Shown one piece after another: positions 10,040 to 42,433 of a stretch of 64,000 nt of DNA; position 1 is the stretch's first letter; the number at the start of each line of letters is the position of its first letter. The DNA is from an uncultured Chloroflexia bacterium. GTDB taxonomy: Bacteria > Chloroflexota > UBA6077 > JACCZL01. The stretch is taken from contig CAVXYC010000019.1 in the NCBI GenBank assembly GCA_963765765.1, forward strand, positions 224,001 through 288,000, given 5' to 3'. The translations under genes were made by a program, and so were the position numbers. The notes under the pieces were generated by a model that ran no database searches, was not told where the DNA came from, and worked only from the letters and a program-made list of their open reading frames with translations.

Positions 10040-10142
10040 GACCCCACCCCGGCCCTCCCCGCTGCGGCAGGGAGGGAGCCGGATTCCCCTTTCACTAAAC
10101 ACGCTCCCTCCCTGCCGCAGCGGGGAGGGCCTGGGTGGGGTC
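10040..10142. repeat. BoxC-like palindromic element, copy 1
   Basis: gaccccaccccggccctccccgctgcggcagggagggagc ... gctccctccctgccgcagcggggagggcctgggtggggtc; related copies at 15734 and 45910. Confidence 0.85.
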
Positions 10143-10204
10143 GTTTCTCCTGACGTGAGGGTCGAGCGCTCACTTTTTAGTTGTCGACTGCTAACGGCTA
10201 CCGG

Positions 10205-11173
10205 TCAACCCTTTTTCCCGAACCTCCGGCTCAACACCGCCCCGACATCGCGGACTTCTTCGGGCATGGCGTTGGGCATGAGGTTGAAGATCATGCCGTT
10301 CAGGCCGGCGTCGAAGTAGGGCTGGACCTGGTCACCGATTGAGCTCGGGTCACCCACTATCGTTGTGGCGCGCACCATCTCGCGCATTTGCGATGGGACG
10401 TTCGCGAGCATCGCTTCAAAGCGGCGGCTAGCCTCATCTTGAGTTGAAGCGAAGATCATGCTGCCGAGGCGAGTGCGCGTGATCTCGGACGGATCGCGCC
10501 CAACGTCACGGCAATGCTGGTCGAGTACGTCCAGCTTGCGCCGGATCTCATCGGCCGAGCCGAAGATGTTGCAAGCGTCGGCGTACTGAGCCACAAGCCG
10601 CAGCGTGCGTTTCTCGCCGCCTCCACCAATCATGATTCTCGGACCGCCAGGCTGGACCGGCCGCGGATTGTTCAGGGCGTTATGGACGCTGTGGTACTTG
10701 CCCTCCACGGTTGCGGATTCTTCAGTGAACATGGCTTTACAGATCCGCAGCGTGTCTTCCAGGCGGTCCATACGCTCACCGGTGGACGGCCAATCGTAGC
10801 CGTAGCGGCGGGCTTCGTCCTCATTCCAGGCGGCACCGATGCCCAGGATGGCACGGCCATTGGAGACGATGTCAAGCGTGGTGATCATCTTTGCCAGCAG
10901 GGCGGGATTGCGGTAGACGACGCCGGTCACGAGCGCACCGAGCTTGATTTTCGATGTGCATGCTGCAATGGCCGGGAGCAGCGAATAGGCCTCCAGCATG
11001 GGCTCCTCGGGCGGCCCGATCATGCCGATCTGCTGGAAATGGTCCATCACGAAGAACGAGTCGAATCCGGACTCCTCGGCAGCGCAGGCAATGGCCAGGA
11101 CGCGTTCGAACAGCCGGTCGTTGGGGACATCGGAGTAGGTAAAGCGCGGGAGCTGGAAGCCGAGTCTGAGCAT
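10205..11173 (-). CDS. LLM class, probably F420-dependent, oxidoreductase (Rv1855c-like)
   Basis: MDHFQQI, LVTGVVYRNPALLAK, GIGAAWNE, IGGGGEKRTL; start placed at MLRLGFQLP. Confidence 0.85.
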   Translation of the reverse strand: MLRLGFQLPRFTYSDVPNDRLFERVLAIACAAEESGFDSFFVMDHFQQIGMIGPPEEPMLEAYSLLPAIAACTSKIKLGALVTGVVYRNPALLAKMITTLDIVSNGRAILGIGAAWNEDEARRYGYDWPSTGERMDRLEDTLRICKAMFTEESATVEGKYHSVHNALNNPRPVQPGGPRIMIGGGGEKRTLRLVAQYADACNIFGSADEIRRKLDVLDQHCRDVGRDPSEITRTRLGSMIFASTQDEASRRFEAMLANVPSQMREMVRATTIVGDPSSIGDQVQPYFDAGLNGMIFNLMPNAMPEEVRDVGAVLSRRFGKKG

Positions 11174-11385
11174 GGTGGGTCTCCGTGGCGGGGAAGCTAC
11201 GGGCGCGCGGTGCAGAGAATGTGCCGTGGGCGCGATCAGCCAACGTAGTGGCATTCCCTCGTGGGCGCCACCCAGAAATCCTGGCTCCCGATCGCTGTCA
11301 ATGATTTCTAGGTCGCGCCCACAAGGGAATGCCACTACATTGGTGGCAGTATGCGGCGGTCGGTCCGCGTTATGGGCGCGATGTA

Positions 11386-11414
11386 TTGCGCATTAACGAA
11401 AATATCGTTACGAT
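11386..11414 (+). promoter_or_regulatory. Sigma70-type promoter with an embedded 17-bp palindromic operator
   Basis: -35 TTGCGC (11386-11391), 17-nt spacer, -10 TACGAT (11409-11414); TAACGA-AAATA-TCGTTA at 11394-11410. Confidence 0.7.
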
Positions 11415-11420
11415 GATGGT

Positions 11421-12948
11421 GTGATGACTGCCGATCAGGACAATCCTGCTGCTTCGATCATCCGCCGCTTTGGCGGGCAGTCGGCGTTGGCGGCGCTGCT
11501 GGGGCGGCGGCAGAGCACCGTGGAGCATTGGGCTCAGACCGGGCGCATTCCGGCGCAGTGGCAGCAACCGCTCATGTCGTTAGCACGAACGCGAGGTATC
11601 GTCTTGGAAGCAAAAGATTTCGCACCCACTCAGCCGCAGCCGATCAAGCCTGCCAACGGCAAGCTGGGCGTCCTGGTGGTGGGGCTGGGCGCGGTGGCGT
11701 CCACGTTCATCGCCGGGGTTGAGCTGGCGCGCCAGGGCAAGGGCCAGCTCGTGGGCTCGCTCACGCAGATGGGCACCATTCGGCTGGGCAAGCGGACCGA
11801 GCAGCGCTCGCCGTTGATCAAGCAGTTCGTGGACCTGGCCGGCCTGGACGATCTCGTCTTCGGCGCGTGGGACCCGTTTCGGGACAACGCGTACGAGGCA
11901 GCGCTCAAATGCGGCGTGCTGAACAAGTACGAGCACATCTACCCGATCCGCGAGTTCCTCGAGAGCATCGAGCCGATGCCGGCCGCGTTCGACCAGTTCT
12001 ACGTGAAGCGGCTGGACGGTCCGAACACGAAGAGCAAGAAGAACAAGCTCGAGGTGGCCGAGGCGATCCGCCAGGATATCCGCAACTTCAAAGAGAAGAA
12101 CAACTGCGATCGGTTGGTAATGATCTGGGCAGCCTCCACCGAGATCTTCATGGACGAGCACGAGGTTCACGCCACGCCGGAGAGTCTGCGCGCCGCCATG
12201 GAGGCGAACGACCCGAACATCCCCTCGTCCATGCTCTACGCCTACGCCGCGCTGATGGAGGGCGTGCCGTTTGCCAATGGCGCGCCGAACCTGACGGTGG
12301 ACGTGCCGGCGATGATGGAGCTTGCCAATTGAGAACGGCGTGCCGATCTGCGGCAAGGACTTCAAGACGGGTCAGACGCTGATCAAGACGGCCGTGGCGC
12401 CGATGCTGAAGGCCCGCATGCTGGGCGTGAAGGGCTGGTACTCCACCAACATTCTGGGCAATCGCGATGGCGAGGTGCTGGACGATCCCGAGAGCTTCAA
12501 GACGAAGGAAGAGTCCAAGCTGGGCGCGCTGGAGTACATCCTTCAGCCTGAGCTGTATGCCGAGCTCTACAACGATCTCTACCACAAGGTGCGGATCAAC
12601 TATTACCCGCCCCGCGGCGACGAGAAAGAGGGCTGGGACAACATCGACATCTTCGGGTGGCTGGGTTACCCAATGCAGATCAAGATCGATTTCCTGTGCC
12701 GGGACTCAATCCTGGCGGCGCCGCTGGTGCTGGATCTGGTGCTCTTCCAGGACCTGGCGCAGCGCGCGGGACTCAAGGGCATTCAGGAGTGGCTCAGCTT
12801 CTACTTCAAGAGCCCCCAGCACGCGCCCAAGGTGTACCCCGAGCACGATCTCTTCATTCAGCAGACCAAGCTGAAGAACACGCTCCGCTGGCTCATGGGC
12901 GAGGAGCAGATCACCCACCTGGGCATGGAGTACTACCAGGACGAGTAG
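11421..12948 (+). CDS. ino1: Myo-inositol-1-phosphate synthase with N-terminal Cro-like HTH (frameshift near 12325)
   Basis: GLGAVASTF, GSLTQMGTIRLG, NGAPN, GKDFKTGQT, STNILGNRDG, DFLCRDSILAAP, SFYFKSP; first ~66 aa IIRRFGGQSALAALLGRRQSTVEHWAQTGRIP look like a Cro HTH. Confidence 0.9.
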
Positions 12949-13085
12949 AGGCGCCCTGGCGGGCGCGGTGAAGAGTTAAGGGTGAGGGCTGGCCTTAGGT
13001 CCAGTACCCTCCTTCGTCACTCTTCAGTCCCGGCACGCGGTCTGCCGATCTTTACCGGCTGTCAATGAATGCCGGGAGGTGATGT

Positions 13086-13529
13086 ATGACGGCGGGATTT
13101 TCAGCGGTGGATCGCTTCGCCGATACGAGAACTATCCTTCTCACCACGTACCGCCGCGACGGCTCGCCTGTGGGGACGCCCGTGAACGTCGTTGTGGAAA
13201 ACGGTCGGGCGCTCATACGCACCTGGGATACGGCGGGCAAGCTCAAGCGAATGCGCAACAATCCGGAAGTCGAGATTGCTCCCTCGACATTTCGGGGCAA
13301 GGTGACCGGACCGGCAATGCGCGCCCGGGCGCGCGTACTGAGCGGTGCACAATCAGAGCGGGCGCGCAAGCTCCTCGGTCGGAAGTACCCGTTCCTGCAA
13401 GGATTCCTGGTGCCGTTGATCCACCGTCTTCAGCACCAAGAAACGATGCACATCGAGTTGATGCCACTCGATGATGGGTCTACCCTGGAGGCGGCCGCGG
13501 CGGGCACGCTCAGAACCACCGCTGAGTGA
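13086..13529 (+). CDS. PPOX class, probably F420-dependent, oxidoreductase (Rv2061-like)
   Basis: LTTYRRDGSPVGTPV, GKLKRMRNNP; GGAGG RBS. Confidence 0.85.
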   Translation: MTAGFSAVDRFADTRTILLTTYRRDGSPVGTPVNVVVENGRALIRTWDTAGKLKRMRNNPEVEIAPSTFRGKVTGPAMRARARVLSGAQSERARKLLGRKYPFLQGFLVPLIHRLQHQETMHIELMPLDDGSTLEAAAAGTLRTTAE

Positions 13530-14298: not shown

Positions 14299-14390
14299 CC
14301 CTGTCATCCTGAGCGGCGGCGAAGGATCTTCCCCACCGGGGGTCAGGAGTTCGATGGGGAGATCCTACGCCGCCGCTCAGGATGACAGGG
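14299..14390. repeat. REP-like palindrome, GTCATCCTGAG family
   Basis: ccctgtcatcctgagcggcggcgaaggatct ... agatcctacgccgccgctcaggatgacaggg. Confidence 0.8.
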
Positions 14391-15711: not shown

Positions 15712-15733
15712 GGCTTGTTTGTTGCGAGAGAAT

Positions 15734-15851
15734 GACCCCACTCCAGCCCTCCCCGCTGCGGCAGGGAGGGAGCCGGATCGAGAGAAAATCTGGCTGCGCA
15801 CGGAAGCCGCGGCTCCCTCCCTGCCGCAGCGGGGAGGGCTGGGGTAGGGTC
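15734..15851. repeat. BoxC-like palindromic element, copy 2
   Basis: Same arms as 10040-10142 with a different loop. Confidence 0.85.
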
Positions 15852-15868
15852 GTTCTTCTTGGACTCCT

Positions 15869-31288: not shown

Positions 31289-34223
31289 ATGAGTGATGAC
31301 GACTTAGTAACGCGCACGGATGGGCCTCTGGTATTCCATGTGCGGCCTGGGTCCTACGCTGAGGAGCGATTGGGTGGCTTGTCGGCGGCCTTCGTCGCCG
31401 CGGCAGCGCGCATCGCGGAACACTTCGGCAAACATTCCTCTGATCTGAATCCCATCCATCTCTGTTTCGTGGACGTTCCTCACTCGCACGAGGAGAGCTC
31501 CGACCCGGCGGGCACTGTCTACTGCTTGCAGATCAACTCCGAATCACCTGGCCAGCCGGCGGAGATTGTGCTCACGCCGATCGTGGCTGACCAGCTCGTC
31601 GGACCAGGACACCCGTTTGGGCGATTCTGGATCGATGGCCTGGCTGGCTATCTCGCCGCTCAAGCCGGATCCACCGAATACGCTGAGATGCCGGCCAGGG
31701 TCAACAGGATGAGGGAAGAGGGCCAGCTCCAGTCGGTGCTGGAATATATCCGTCAGCGCGCTGAGCGCCGGTCTCCTTTGGCATCCTATGTGGCCTCGGC
31801 CTTCGTCACGTATCTCATCACCTGGCGTGGCCCCGAACGATTTCAACGGCTCCTGCTCGAGGCGCGGAAGGGGAATCCCGATGCGTTTCGCAGCGCCTAT
31901 CGTCCCCCGCTGCAGGTTGTGGAAGGACAGTGGCTGCGCAAGCTAGAGGCGGCCAACCAGACAGGCGGCGGGTCGATGATTGACGCTGTACGACGAGTTG
32001 ATCCCGTACTTCACCCCCTATGCCAGTACGCTGAGCTGGGTCATGCTCACAATCGTTCTAGGGCTCTCGTTCGATCTTTTCGTGCCATTTGCATTTCGCT
32101 TCTTGATCGATCAGATTTTGACCCGGCGACCATTGCCGTTCCCAATACCCGGTATTGGCAACGCCGGCGAGCAGATTGCCGTCGACGAACGAATGCAAAC
32201 GCTCTTTGTGCTTCTTGGCGCAATGGTGTTCATGTTCATCATCAACACGATTGCCCGGATCCGTCAGACGTACCTCGTGGCAACGGTCAGTCAGAGCGTG
32301 AACCTCGAGCTACGCCGCCGTTTCTTCGAGCACATGCAGCGCTTGCCGGTGACGTTCCACGCACGCACCGCGGCCACTGACATTAGCCAGCGTTTCTTTA
32401 CCGATATCGCCTACGTTCCGGCGTCGCTGTCCACGGGGCTTGTTCCGTTGCTCAGCAACGGTCTGGCGATGCTCCTTTTCGGTTTCTCGATGCTCTCAAC
32501 CAATCTCATTCTCGCCGGGATCGCGATTGCCGGATTACCCCTCTTTGCTTTTTCAGCGAGGACCGGGCGCGTCACTACGCGCGAGCTGCAGCGGGAGGGC
32601 TCACGACGTGTCAGTGAGATTCAGCAGTCGCTCTTCGAGAACCTCGCGGGCCAGAGATTTCTTCGCTTCTGGAATGCTCGTGCAGGCCACCGTGAATCGC
32701 TTCGAGGAAAAGCTCCAGATCAATCGCGATCTCAACGTCCGAACCACCCTAGTCACTTCCACATTTGCTCGAGCGACCATGCTCATCACGAATGCAGCGC
32801 AGGTGGCCATTCTCATCACTGGCGGCGCCATCGTCATACTTTCCAATGGTCAGGACCTCACCGCGGGAGCACTGACGGCCTTTTATCTCCTTTTGCTCCG
32901 TCTCTATGGTCCAGCGGGCCAATTTGCAGGTGCTACACAATCGCTGACGCAGGGCGCTGACGGCCTGAATCGACTGCGACGCATCTTCGATCAGAAGCCC
33001 GAGGAGGAGCCGGTCGAAGCGGTCGTCCTGGGGCCGTTGCAGAAGAGCATCGAGCTAAAGGACGTGGGACTGAGTCAGAGCGGTGGCAAAGTCGTGCTAC
33101 GGCGACTCTCGGCTGTCATCCCAGCGGGCAAGAAGATCGCTTTTGTCGGTCCAACTGGATCTGGGAAGGCCAATCTCATCACGCTCTTTCCGCGTCTGGA
33201 GAGTGCTACATCCGGTCAGGTCCTCTGGGATGGGTTGGATACCGCGCTGGTGACGCGGGATTCGCTCCGGTCTCAACTGACGGTGCTTACGCAGGATACC
33301 TTCGTCTTGAATGCCACGATCTACGAGAACATACGAATTACCAAGCCCGATGCTACCGAAGACGAAGTACTGCGCGCCTCAAATGACGCCGGGCTTCACG
33401 AGTTCGTCAACGGACTCCCAGGCGCCTACGATACGGTTACGAGCGATCGCGATCCGACATTGTCTGCTCCATTGCGGCAGCGGCTGAGTGTGGCAGGGCG
33501 TTATTGCGCGACTGCTCTGTAATTCTTATGGACGACGCGCTCTCCGCCCTCGATCCTCCTACTCAGAGAGAGCTGGAGCTAAAGCTGCGCGCGCATGCAT
33601 CATCCGGCACCCTCATTGTTGTTGCCCAGCGGCTTGGGAGCATCGAGGATGCAGACAACATCTATGTGATGGACGATGGTCAGGTTGTCGAGTCGGGCAC
33701 GCATTATGAGCTCCTTGACGCGCCCGGGCTTTACGTCCAGCTTCTCAAGGATGAGCTGGGTGAGGCCGCGGTAAGTGGCGCGCGCCAGGCTATGCGCCGA
33801 TTGAGCAAGCTGGCGCCATTCTCCAGTCTGCCGCCCGAAGTCATTGAGGAGACATCTGATCTTCTGCTTTTCATGGAGCGGTTGCCCGGTCAGGACATCG
33901 TGCGGGAGGGAAGCCTGGGCGATGAGCTCTTCATTATCGGGCGTGGCGAGGTGGAGATCGTCGTCCACGATGAGGACGGGGATGAGCAGATCGTTGCGAC
34001 GCTGGGTGAGGGCGATTACTTCGGGGAGATCAGCTTCCTCCGCAGAACGGCCCGAACTGCCACCGTGCGAGCTCGAACGCCCACCGAGCTTCACGTGCTC
34101 CGTCGTGTGGACTTCGACTTGTTGCTCAACCGGCTGGGCGAGGGCACCCTGGAGCACATGGAAGAAACCGCTCGCGCTCGGCTCGAGGACACGCGCTCAA
34201 AGCTAGCGGCGCTTTCAGCGTAG
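31289..34223 (+). CDS. ABC exporter with N-terminal peptidase-MA-like domain, TMD, degenerate NBD and C-terminal cNMP-binding domain; frameshifts near 31990, 32670 and 33500
   Basis: FWIDGLAGYL, SAFVTYLITWRGPERF; NBD GPTGSGKAN, LSAPLRQRL, LMDDALSALD, AQRL; cNMP cassette GDYFGEISFLRRTARTATV; AAGGAGG RBS. Confidence 0.85.
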
Positions 34224-40393: not shown

Positions 40394-40693
40394 ATCCCCT
40401 CTACCGCTTCATGACCGCGTTGCATCGCCAGCGCGTCCGCTGTGGTTCCGAAGGAATCGTCTAACTCTTCTCTTCGCCAATCCATAGGTGCATGATCTTA
40501 GCGGGCATTGGCCGCGTTTTGGAACGGAGCGCCGTCGAAATGCGATTCAAGCCTACGGCAATAGAAAACCCTACCCGTTCCCGTGGCGCTTCGCGCTCTC
40601 GTTTGGCCTGAATGGTTGCCGGACCGGTCATGCGAGGTAATACTGGGAGCAGATCAGGCAATGGCACAACCCCCGGTACCTGGGAGGTCATCC

Positions 40694-42433
40694 ATGTTGC
40701 TCAGGCGGATGCGCGGCGGACTCGTTCGATCGGCCCAAGTTGCGTCTGTGGTGGTTTTGATGGTTGGGTGCGCGGCGCCCGGAGCACCACCGTCCACCGC
40801 GCCAACGGCGGCCCCGCCGCCCAAGGAGCAGCCCGCCGTCCCGACTGTGGTTCCAGCGCCAACGGTCGCCGCGGCCCAGGCACAACCGTCCCTGTCGCGA
40901 TTGGTCATGGCGGTGGCTCCTCCGGGACGCGAGTCGAACGACGTCCGCTTCACCGGTAACACTGACCTGTGGGCACTCCGCCCGATGTACGAGTTCCTCA
41001 TCGGCCTAGATCCCAAGACGGGCAAGTACATTCCGCAGCTCGCCACCGAGTGGCAGCTTGACGAGGCCGGCCCATCGGCTCGATTCAAGCTACGCAAGGG
41101 TGTGCAGTTCCATGGGGGAAACGGTGAGTTTACCGCCAAAGACGTCGTGTTTACCCGCGAGCAGATGCGCAAGGATGACGTCATCAACGGCTGGCGTACG
41201 TTCTTCGACTCAGCGATCAAGGACATCGAAGTCGTCAATGACTACGAGGTCGTTTTCCATCTCTCGCGAGCAGATCCCAACTTGCTCGACATTATCTGCG
41301 GAAGCCGAAAACGGGTTTGAGATCCGAAGCGCGGCGCACTTCGACAAGATAGGGCCTCCCACCATGGAAAGTGGCCCACTGGCCGGGACGGGTGCCTATC
41401 AGTTCAAGGAGCGTGCTCAGGCACAGTACATTCGGTTTGAGCGCGTGCCATATCAGCATTGGCGAGCCCAGCCCGAGTTCCCTGAGTTCGAGTTCCGTTT
41501 CCAGCGCGAGGCGTCCACTCGTCTGGCCGCGCTGCAGGCCGGCGAAGTCCACATCACCACCTTACCGGCGGACCTACAACGCGATGCCGAGCGTCGAGGC
41601 TTCCCGGTCATCAGCAGTCAGGCTCCAGGCCTGCGCACTTTCATGCGTTACTACTGCTGCATCATGAAGGATCCCAAGAATCCAGACGCTGGCTGGGAGT
41701 ATCCGGATAGCCCGTTGATGGACGTACGTGTCCGCAAGGCGCTCAACAAGGCCATCAACCGCGACGAGCTGAACAAGGCGCTGTTCGACGGTAAGGGCGA
41801 GCCGATGTACGTCACTCAGCACCATCAAACTCGCCTGGGCTGGGACCCCTCGTGGGTGCAGCGCTGGCCAGACGAATACGGCTACGATCCCGCCGCTGCC
41901 CGCGCGCTGCTTGCCGAGGCGGGCTTTACAGCCGGCAAGCCGATGACCACGAACATCGTTTGTCGACGCCGATGGCCTCCATTGGTCAGGCACAGGATGT
42001 TCAAGAAGCCGTGGCCGGATACTGGCGTGCTGTAGGTGCCCAGGTGGAGCTACTGTCCACAGATCCGACAGAGATCGCCAACAACACACGCGTCCGTAAG
42101 TACAGCAACCACGTCCAGATGTGGGCAAACGCTTCGGCGATGTTCACGGGCTTCACCGGCCTGTTCCTCACCTGGGGCGGACGCGGCAATGGCTTCGAGG
42201 ACTTCGACGTCGATCGCTACGTCCTCGAAGCGGTCAGCACCTTTGACGAGAAGAAGCAGGACGAGGCCTGGCGCAAGGCCGGCGAGGTGCACTTCGCCAA
42301 GCACGCCGCGGTCCCGCTCTTCTGGCTCCCGGCCGAGGCCGTTATCAACCCGCGGGTGGTGTCAGAGTACACGTACCCTGGCAACGTTACCGGGACGTGG
42401 ACGCACGTGTACACGGCGAAGGCCGCGAAGTAG
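40694..42433 (+). CDS. ABC substrate-binding lipoprotein, family 5 (frameshifts near 41295 and 41960)
   Basis: Lipobox MVGC, PQLATEW, FKLRKGVQFH, GTGAY, DVRVRKALNKAINR, YDPAAARALLAEAG. Confidence 0.85.

Follow-up and report, generated by a model that had tools for sequence, protein, structure and literature searches.

We examined a 64,000-nucleotide (nt) stretch of the genome of an uncultured Chloroflexia bacterium (contig CAVXYC010000019.1, positions 224,001 to 288,000; hereafter the window), in which an ino1 gene for inositol-3-phosphate synthase (Ino1) begins with a short helix-turn-helix (HTH) domain of the Cro kind and lies directly behind a promoter-like sequence containing a 17-bp palindrome. 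Comparison with related genomes suggests that the gene probably encodes an auto-repressing enzyme-repressor with two translation starts, its Cro-like head acting on an operator at its own promoter. The fusion and its conservation, the homology to Cro, the conserved operator, the promoter geometry and an internal Shine-Dalgarno (SD) sequence followed by a TTG codon were all computed. Auto-repression by the fused HTH domain is the best-supported reading, and well supported by comparison, because kinship with Cro, a conserved fusion, a conserved palindrome in the promoter and a conserved leaderless geometry all favour it.

A previous, sequence-only reading of the window had described one gene frame at 11386..12948, preceded by TTGCGC-N17-TACGAT with a perfect palindrome TAACGA-N5-TCGTTA, starting 6 nt past the -10 box and running from a Cro/YdaS-like N-terminus into Ino1 with no separate start codon or ribosome-binding site at the junction; Ino1 was taken to be its own repressor, derived from a domesticated phage module and possibly sensing glucose-6-phosphate, NAD or inositol phosphate. 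That observation is partly confirmed and its interpretation partly supported. The boxes, the palindrome and the start codon are all present by direct reading, the N-terminus is in frame with Ino1, and the kind of domain, the fusion and the palindrome recur in relatives as detailed below. The single frame is broken in the window, and a conserved SD-like sequence with an in-frame TTG does exist at the junction. Autoregulation is well supported by comparison, and an Ino1 without the HTH domain is probably made as well.

A Cro-like domain fused to Ino1 across Chloroflexota

In the window, an in-frame GTG at 11421, 6 nt past the -10 box, and an ATG at 11424 are both read directly, and in the list of open reading frames (ORFs) the HTH-like N-terminus is free of stops up to the Rossmann motif of Ino1. 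A search with the 70-amino-acid (aa) domain returned 365 longer proteins that carry it, of which fusions of the NCBIfam domain NF046037 to Ino1 are the closest and largest group. Among the best 120 of the 365, 112 have Ino1 Pfam domains and are typically 503-515 aa long, while the other eight are short fragments with no Pfam domain. A scan in which each species was represented by one genome gave 364 matching stretches, of which 359 were confirmed, placing the fusion in at least 359 species-level genomes. The best 80 loci were kept, and in these the match extends through a linker of about 13 residues into Ino1.

These loci all come from metagenome-assembled genomes, 72 from Chloroflexota, four from Dormibacterota and four with another or no phylum label; the chloroflexotal carriers include Ktedonobacterales, Thermomicrobiales, Dehalococcoidia, Tepidiformales and Anaerolineaceae. 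Where a start was assigned (78 loci), 66 ORFs are complete at 495-535 aa, 11 are open to the contig end and one (L011) is interrupted, giving an intact frame in 66 of the 67 complete related loci. Furthermore, the Ino1 part, taken by itself, has as its 120 closest relatives proteins that are 76-81% identical to it and nearly all of fused length (503-527 aa). Taken together, the comparisons indicate that the fusion to Ino1 is genuine, conserved and widespread.

The genes around the fusion differ between loci, as judged by Pfam on 101 of 138 flanking ORFs (44/61 downstream and 57/77 upstream, the shortest being omitted). Among the flanking ORFs examined by Pfam, no conserved partner gene or neighbouring regulator was found; the recurring families are TruB (five loci), Lip_A_acyltrans (three), and luciferase-like, PNPOx and CtaG (two each). 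In 41/61 loci the gene downstream is encoded on the other strand. Varied neighbours and an opposite-strand downstream gene suggest that the unit is monocistronic and moves between contexts, hence that its conservation does not reflect synteny.

The Ino1 part of the homologue P0001 aligns to the solved Ino1 structure 7nwr with an E-value of 6.2e-162 across residues 71-498. Ino1 of this type is, by sequence, a myo-inositol-3-phosphate synthase (MIPS), predicted to convert glucose-6-phosphate to inositol-3-phosphate with bound nicotinamide adenine dinucleotide (NAD).

Some public gene calls sourced from NCBI (P0269, P0291, P0334, P0342, P0343 and P0346, e.g. at L025) are only 456-458 aa long and start at an internal Met in HTH helix 4 (MSLAR..., MALAR..., MELAR...), even where the DNA holds the complete open frame. 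Such truncated calls conceal the DNA-binding domain, with consequences for annotation.

The N-terminal domain is related to all-alpha Cro proteins

The N-terminal domain of the window gene matches NF046037 ('carph-isopro') at 64.6 bits against a cut-off of 38, over aa 11-62 and profile positions 2-53 of 54, and the domain of P0001 likewise exceeds the curated cut-off. The NCBIfam entry gives a name only, and neither a function nor an operator was found for the domain family. A sequence profile of the domain compared with the Protein Data Bank (PDB) retrieved the Cro proteins of Xfaso 1 (3bd1, 2.3e-8), P22 (1rzs, 6.3e-5) and N15 (0.017). A model of the domain built from a 70-sequence alignment has five helices, with a predicted local distance difference test score (pLDDT) of 81.6. 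Its best PDB folds by Foldseek are 3bd1, 5w8y, 6on0 and 2hin (probability 0.98-1.0, template modelling score 0.51-0.72), and the top folds are all-alpha Cro proteins, namely Xfaso 1 Cro 3bd1, the hybrid XPH1 and N15 Cro with its operator (6on0). Homology to, and the fold of, solved all-alpha Cro proteins are thus both found in this domain.

Conservation of the HTH domain equals that of the enzyme over 67 full-length sequences, with F16, Q19, R29, Q30, S31, T32, W36 and W46 among the invariant positions; the Q, S, T and W residues of the recognition helix are invariant. Prediction of a two-copy complex of HTH residues 1-70 scored 0.00, which speaks neither for nor against dimerisation.

NF046037 also occurs above its cut-off as stand-alone proteins of 67-70 aa, and heads fusions with P63C, MEDS, RhuM, MBL hydrolase, DHBP synthase, IalB, rhodanese and DUF218. 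Examples include a DHBP synthase (RibB, P0237), a rhodanese/sulfurtransferase (P0248), MEDS sensors (P0148/P0149/P0152), an Apyc1-like MBL hydrolase (P0200) and a DUF218 protein (P0139). The fusions with RibB, rhodanese, MEDS and MBL hydrolase may be further enzyme-regulators. Stretches of 4-11 tandem Cro-like domains were seen in P0125 (701 aa), P0189 (790 aa), P0133, P0185 and P0251, in P0189 together with homing-endonuclease-associated repeats. A collection of 50,697 phage records held one weak match to the domain (34.9% identity, E 8e-4), and in the ESM Atlas the nearest look-alike clusters outside Ino1 are viral. A phage origin of the cro-operator module is a lead only.

A conserved palindrome within a promoter of leaderless geometry

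The two arms of the palindrome, TAACGA at 11394-11399 and TCGTTA at 11405-11410, occupy the spacer between the promoter-like boxes and overlap the first two bases of the -10 box. Within 80 nt upstream of the gene, a site with at most two mismatches is present in 78 of the 80 loci (49 perfect, 22 with one mismatch and seven with two). A perfect site outside that 80-nt stretch in L078 brings the total to 79/80 loci with 50 perfect sites, and L067 has a variant with wider spacing. In the 544,898 nt of locus DNA only eight further sites with at most two mismatches occur (excluding the operator of L078 and a second upstream site in L069). The exact palindrome is found once each, at the promoter, in 50/80 loci, and no second copy of the operator was found ahead of a neighbouring gene in the flanking DNA of the 80 loci. 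The palindrome is also absent at three non-fused Ino1 loci, which lie on plasmids of other phyla.

A palindrome-anchored profile of 80 rows (79 loci plus the window) shows how promoter and palindrome are interlocked. The -35 columns read cTTGC at -9 to -5 (C 62, T 64, T 48, G 60 and C 50 of 80), and the -10 box takes the form T-A-n-n-a-T, with the last T in 77/80, at a -35/-10 spacing of 17 nt. The half-sites are near-invariant (AACGA in 78-80 of 80 rows, CGTTA in 73-80), the palindrome spacer is A/T-rich and the upstream flank is random. The centres of the half-sites lie about 11 bp apart.

Two upstream sites were seen in 5/80 loci. The paired operator-like palindromes lie about 30 nt apart in L012, L023 and L024 (also L003) and 97 nt apart in L069; L012 and L023 appear to have duplicate -35 and -10 boxes as well as a duplicate operator.

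The distance to the start codon is conserved too. In coordinates relative to the palindrome's first base, the -10 box ends at position 20, and the first in-frame start at or after position 24 was taken. Over 79 loci it falls at position 28 (54 loci), 27 (17), 29 (4), 24 (2) or 30 (1), with one locus lacking an assignment, so that 75/79 loci start at 27-29, i.e. 6-8 nt after the -10 box; the window fits, with GTG at 27. The 6-8 bases between -10 and start are variable in the anchored profile. Most of these genes therefore have TAnnnT 6-8 nt before the start and no SD between. In PMC3160421, TAnnnT just 5' of the start codon is the signature for predicting leaderless genes, and such genes are predicted there in 4 of 12 Chloroflexi genomes. 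The start-codon distance points to a leaderless mRNA. A search of 10900-13300 against Rfam with E up to 1 found no riboswitch or leader RNA; the only match was a chance one to a miRNA family on the upstream hairpin, at 24.8 bits against a gathering threshold of 67.

A probable second start at the junction

In the window, 6 nt separate cGAGGT at 11592-11597 from a downstream in-frame TTG, the Leu codon of G-V-I-L-E-A-K-D-F. In relatives this codon is TTG in 64/79, GTG in 1/79 and CTG or CTC in 14/79, and GAGG stands upstream in 54 of the 64 TTG sequences and in the GTG one (55/65). Codon usage over the 66 complete genes is markedly skewed at this site. TTG makes up 4.2% of Leu codons gene-wide and 52/65 at the internal site, the Arg four codons before it is AGA in 36/57 (3.5% gene-wide), and the Gly after that Arg is GGT in 45/66 (9.8% gene-wide); together the codons spell AGAGGTG, 6-7 nt ahead of TTG. 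The columns of the SD-TTG element rank first, second and fourth in the gene for non-random codon choice (log-likelihood ratios 144, 124 and 76 against a median of 7.2), with the TTG column at the top. The seven codons around them form the strongest such stretch of the gene, ahead even of the 5' end.

Further features fit translation from this point. The codons behind the TTG are A-rich (GAA, AAA), like those behind the 5' start, and an ordinary SD of the same genome is similar (GGAGGTG, with 5 nt between it and the ATG at 13086). The product from TTG would be about 447 aa, compared with 449 aa for 7nwr, the closest solved non-fused Ino1, whose alignment begins at query residue 71; the internal TTG is also the precise start of one public gene call (P0283, 447 aa). 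The junction thus combines a conserved SD and start codon with constraint at synonymous sites, which suggests a second, HTH-less Ino1 isoform.

Alternatively, GAGGTG-TTG may not be a start at all, being instead the relic of an operon of two translationally coupled genes, cro and ino1, or a pause site for ribosomes or other nucleotide-level signal, with only the full-length fusion produced. Nine of the 14 sequences that lack a canonical start codon there retain GAGG, as this explanation would allow. Yet the rare AGA, GGT and TTG codons are retained in most of 66 divergent genes, as the strongest seven-codon cluster and above the 5' end, and among proteins about 75% identical a relic would no longer be preserved. 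The GAA/AAA codons mirror the 5' start and the product has the length of a non-fused Ino1, so we regard this alternative as unlikely. With a conserved SD and TTG at the junction, the model shifts from Ino1 as its own repressor to a minor HTH-tagged isoform that would report on, or repress, production of the enzyme.

Proposed auto-repression and its alternatives

An enzyme and a DNA-binding domain in one chain, with an operator-like site at the gene's own promoter in 79/80 loci, is the architecture of a trigger enzyme. In the mechanism we propose, a sigma-70-type promoter (TTGCnn, 17 nt, TAnnnT) 6-8 nt before the start codon would give a leaderless mRNA, whose 5'-terminal start would yield the HTH-tagged (Cro-headed) regulator form of Ino1. 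Ino1 enzymes are oligomers. The oligomer could pair two HTH heads and so bind the palindrome, in which a distance of about 11 bp between half-site centres would place both half-sites on one face of the helix. With the palindrome in the spacer and the -10 box, occupancy should exclude RNA polymerase, amounting to negative autoregulation. Substrate, NAD or product might modulate the binding. The internal SD and TTG would supply HTH-less Ino1 of canonical size as the bulk enzyme, with which the long form may co-assemble.

A more elaborate version can be put forward tentatively, as a possibility that we think clearly less probable than not. It would be a homeostat, shared by hundreds of Chloroflexota and Dormibacterota species, in which one leaderless mRNA yields Cro-headed and bulk headless Ino1 in mixed tetramers, operator occupancy reports the size of the enzyme pool and perhaps the substrate or NAD state, and transcripts reading through with a 5' leader yield the headless enzyme only. 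If so, read-through transcripts would uncouple the supply of enzyme from the supply of repressor.

Several points weigh against auto-repression and the dual start. DNA binding, repression, leaderless transcription with its start site and the two protein products are all inferred. The Pfam families YdaS_toxin (PF15943, 25.2 bits against 30) and P22_Cro (PF14549, 22.2 against 30.2) are matched below threshold, so that under Pfam's curated rule the domain is to be classed as a Cro relative and not as a family member. The E-values from Foldseek are weak (from 1.5e-2), as expected with a 75-residue model, and an AlphaFold model of full-length P0001 from 67 sequences (pLDDT 65.4, below 50 in the C-terminal half) is uninformative on where the HTH domain sits. 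The promoter match in the window alone is weak (7 of 12 positions), and a consensus promoter scan of 10800-13400 called nothing at the site, its boxes matching at only 3/6 and 4/6. The palindrome pattern with at most two mismatches is expected 0.74 times in the window and was matched at least once in 47 of 100 shuffles, and 34 perfect 6-N5-6 palindromes of any sequence lie within the window. Taken in the window alone the palindrome is within chance, and its significance derives solely from its conservation in relatives. The 14/79 sequences with CTG or CTC have no canonical internal start, and the short isoform may not be universal. Finally, the window copy as sequenced cannot yield full-length Ino1.

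The HTH-less control loci come from other phyla only and are weak as controls, since the same outcome is expected if the regulator exists only in Chloroflexota. An unlinked regulator could bind the palindrome instead. More generally, the palindrome might be the site of an unlinked transcription factor or an element of promoter architecture, with the HTH-like domain serving a structural or oligomerisation role away from DNA, like the alpha domain of HppE. Chains of HppE, an epoxidase with a Cro/cI-like alpha domain, are among the weaker Foldseek matches (E 0.6-1) and show that Cro-like domains do occur on enzymes. Against this, the recognition-helix residues and the operator half-sites are both invariant over the same set of genomes, and the nearest PDB relatives in sequence are true operator-binding Cro proteins. 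The same domain heads the MEDS proteins mentioned above, MEDS being named after the regulator DcmR, and a conserved neighbouring regulator gene was not found among the flanking ORFs. We consider an unlinked regulator with a non-DNA role for the domain improbable, and favour auto-repression by the fused head.

The window copy is interrupted by a frameshift

The copy of the gene in the window does not have an uninterrupted frame. Its first ORF (11421-12332, 303 aa) is closed by a TGA at 12330-12332, which results from one surplus base in AATT (12327-12330), and the remainder of Ino1 lies in the +1 frame (12322-12948, 208 aa). By tblastn, residues 1-302 of P0001 match in frame 1 at 92% identity and residues 303-507 in frame 2 at 95.6%. 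Both pieces are colinear with full-length homologues with no further defect in the alignment, and between them they carry the Ino1/MIPS domains PF07994 (8.4e-65 and 5.2e-23) and PF01658 (9.4e-34). Coordinates are listed in Table 1.

Either the insertion is an error of assembly, or the gene was inactivated very recently. In the latter case the gene would be a true pseudogene in this organism, with Ino1 inactive and the promoter-operator-HTH module a relic, as the stop and the switch of frame would imply. A solute-binding protein gene (SBP_bac_5, 40583-41320 and 41058-42035) and an ABC transporter gene (ABC_membrane 31980-32960, ABC_tran 32440-33522) appear to be split as well. With at least two other genes that look split (40583-42035 and 31980-33522), indels seem to be frequent in the sequence of the window. 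These could reflect genome decay, but several split genes in 64 kb fit assembly indel error equally well. The two halves of Ino1 are 92-96% identical to an intact homologue with no other defect, and the surplus base sits in a short AATT run. The other broken locus, L011, is interrupted elsewhere in the gene. A true pseudogene is, in our judgement, possible but rather doubtful. As sequenced, however, the gene is broken, which is relevant to any metabolic reconstruction from this genome.

Programmed frameshifting in Ino1 was considered and rejected: interruptions occur only in the window and in L011, where the frameshift falls at a different residue.

Table 1. Features of the HTH-ino1 locus in the window (positions of the 64,000-nt stretch)
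Feature	Position	Strand	Basis or remark
-35-like hexamer TTGCGC	11386..11391	+	read in window; same columns conserved in relatives
Operator-like 17-bp palindrome TAACGA-AAATA-TCGTTA	11394..11410	.	perfect; kept in 79/80 loci
-10-like hexamer TACGAT (TAnnnT)	11409..11414	+	read in window; 17 nt from -35
Candidate long-isoform start, GTG 11421 (position 27) or ATG 11424 (position 30)	11421..11426	+	probable 5' end of leaderless mRNA
Cro/YdaS-like HTH domain, aa 11-62, NF046037 'carph-isopro'	11451..11606	+	NCBIfam, profile searches, fold
Internal SD-like GAGGT from Arg (CGA) and Gly (GGT) codons	11593..11597	+	conserved in relatives
In-frame TTG (Leu62), candidate start of HTH-less Ino1 of ~447 aa	11604..11606	+	codon conservation
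Ino1 N-terminal part, NAD-binding Rossmann domain, HTH frame	11664..12329	+	PF07994 E 8.4e-65, aa 82-303, profile 1-237 of 321
Frameshift site	12327..12332	+	surplus base in AATT, TGA 12330-12332
Ino1 C-terminal part, catalytic/oligomerisation domain, +1 frame	12331..12948	+	PF01658 E 9.4e-34; PF07994 profile 238-321
Ino1 stop in +1 frame	12946-12948	+

Relation to known systems

In sequence profile and predicted fold, the domain is like the all-alpha Cro proteins of Xfaso 1 (3bd1), P22 (1rzs) and N15 (2hin/6on0). Cro operators are 17-bp palindromes with half-site centres about 11 bp apart that overlap a promoter, as does the palindrome here. Unlike Cro, the domain is fused to a 440-aa enzyme and is chromosomal, with no prophage context and a single operator-like site in most loci.

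BirA, PutA and NadR are bifunctional enzyme-repressors (trigger enzymes) with an operator at the promoter of their own pathway. In archaea, the riboflavin kinase/regulator RbkR (PMC5397151) also unites enzyme and DNA-binding domain in one polypeptide. Unlike these four, the enzyme here is Ino1 and the DNA-binding fold is Cro-like. To our knowledge, none of BirA, PutA, NadR and RbkR has a leaderless promoter together with an internal start for an HTH-less enzyme. In-frame dual-start genes such as those for IF2 alpha/beta, ClpB and the long and short forms of CheA use an internal SD and start to make an isoform minus one domain. The present case differs in that the long form would arise from a predicted leaderless 5' end and the dropped domain is the DNA-binding head. 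The ino1 promoter of Corynebacterium and Mycobacterium, makers of inositol lipids or thiols, is under the LacI-type regulator IpsA. Unlike the regulator proposed here, which would be contained in Ino1, IpsA belongs to another family and acts in trans as a protein of its own.

We therefore rate the locus as a putative trigger-enzyme-like autorepressor that has a Cro head, a leaderless promoter-operator and probably two translation starts; its closest kinds are Cro repressors and bifunctional enzyme-repressors. No paper on the 'carph-isopro' domain or on an HTH-Ino1 fusion was found in open-access papers and preprints. Few enzymes that double as transcription factors are known to us, mostly from model bacteria. 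For a phylum that has been little studied, comparison alone is enough to define a complete, compact circuit, comprising promoter, operator, leaderless start, DNA-binding head, enzyme and probable second start, and it offers a testable case of an anabolic enzyme pool setting its own transcription.

Genomic surroundings

A gene for a lipid A-type (HtrB-like) acyltransferase adjoins the fused ino1 in L025, L039 and L040, an arrangement that we take to be reminiscent of actinobacterial gene clusters for phosphatidylinositol mannosides.

Between a divergent luciferase-like monooxygenase gene and the ino1 promoter of the window lies a near-perfect hairpin of 104 nt (11240-11343), with 41-nt arms that are 90% complementary, a folding energy of -69.8 kcal/mol and a z-score of -10.3. 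No other copy of its arms exists in the window, and it belongs to no Rfam family. Further GC-rich intergenic hairpins at 10040-10145, 15729-15856 and 14299-14390 resemble repeats of the repetitive extragenic palindrome (REP) or miniature inverted-repeat transposable element (MITE) type. Two copies of one hairpin family, 88-96% identical and with inverted arms of 40-47 nt, flank the gene neighbourhood, and a third, unrelated hairpin has 35-nt arms.

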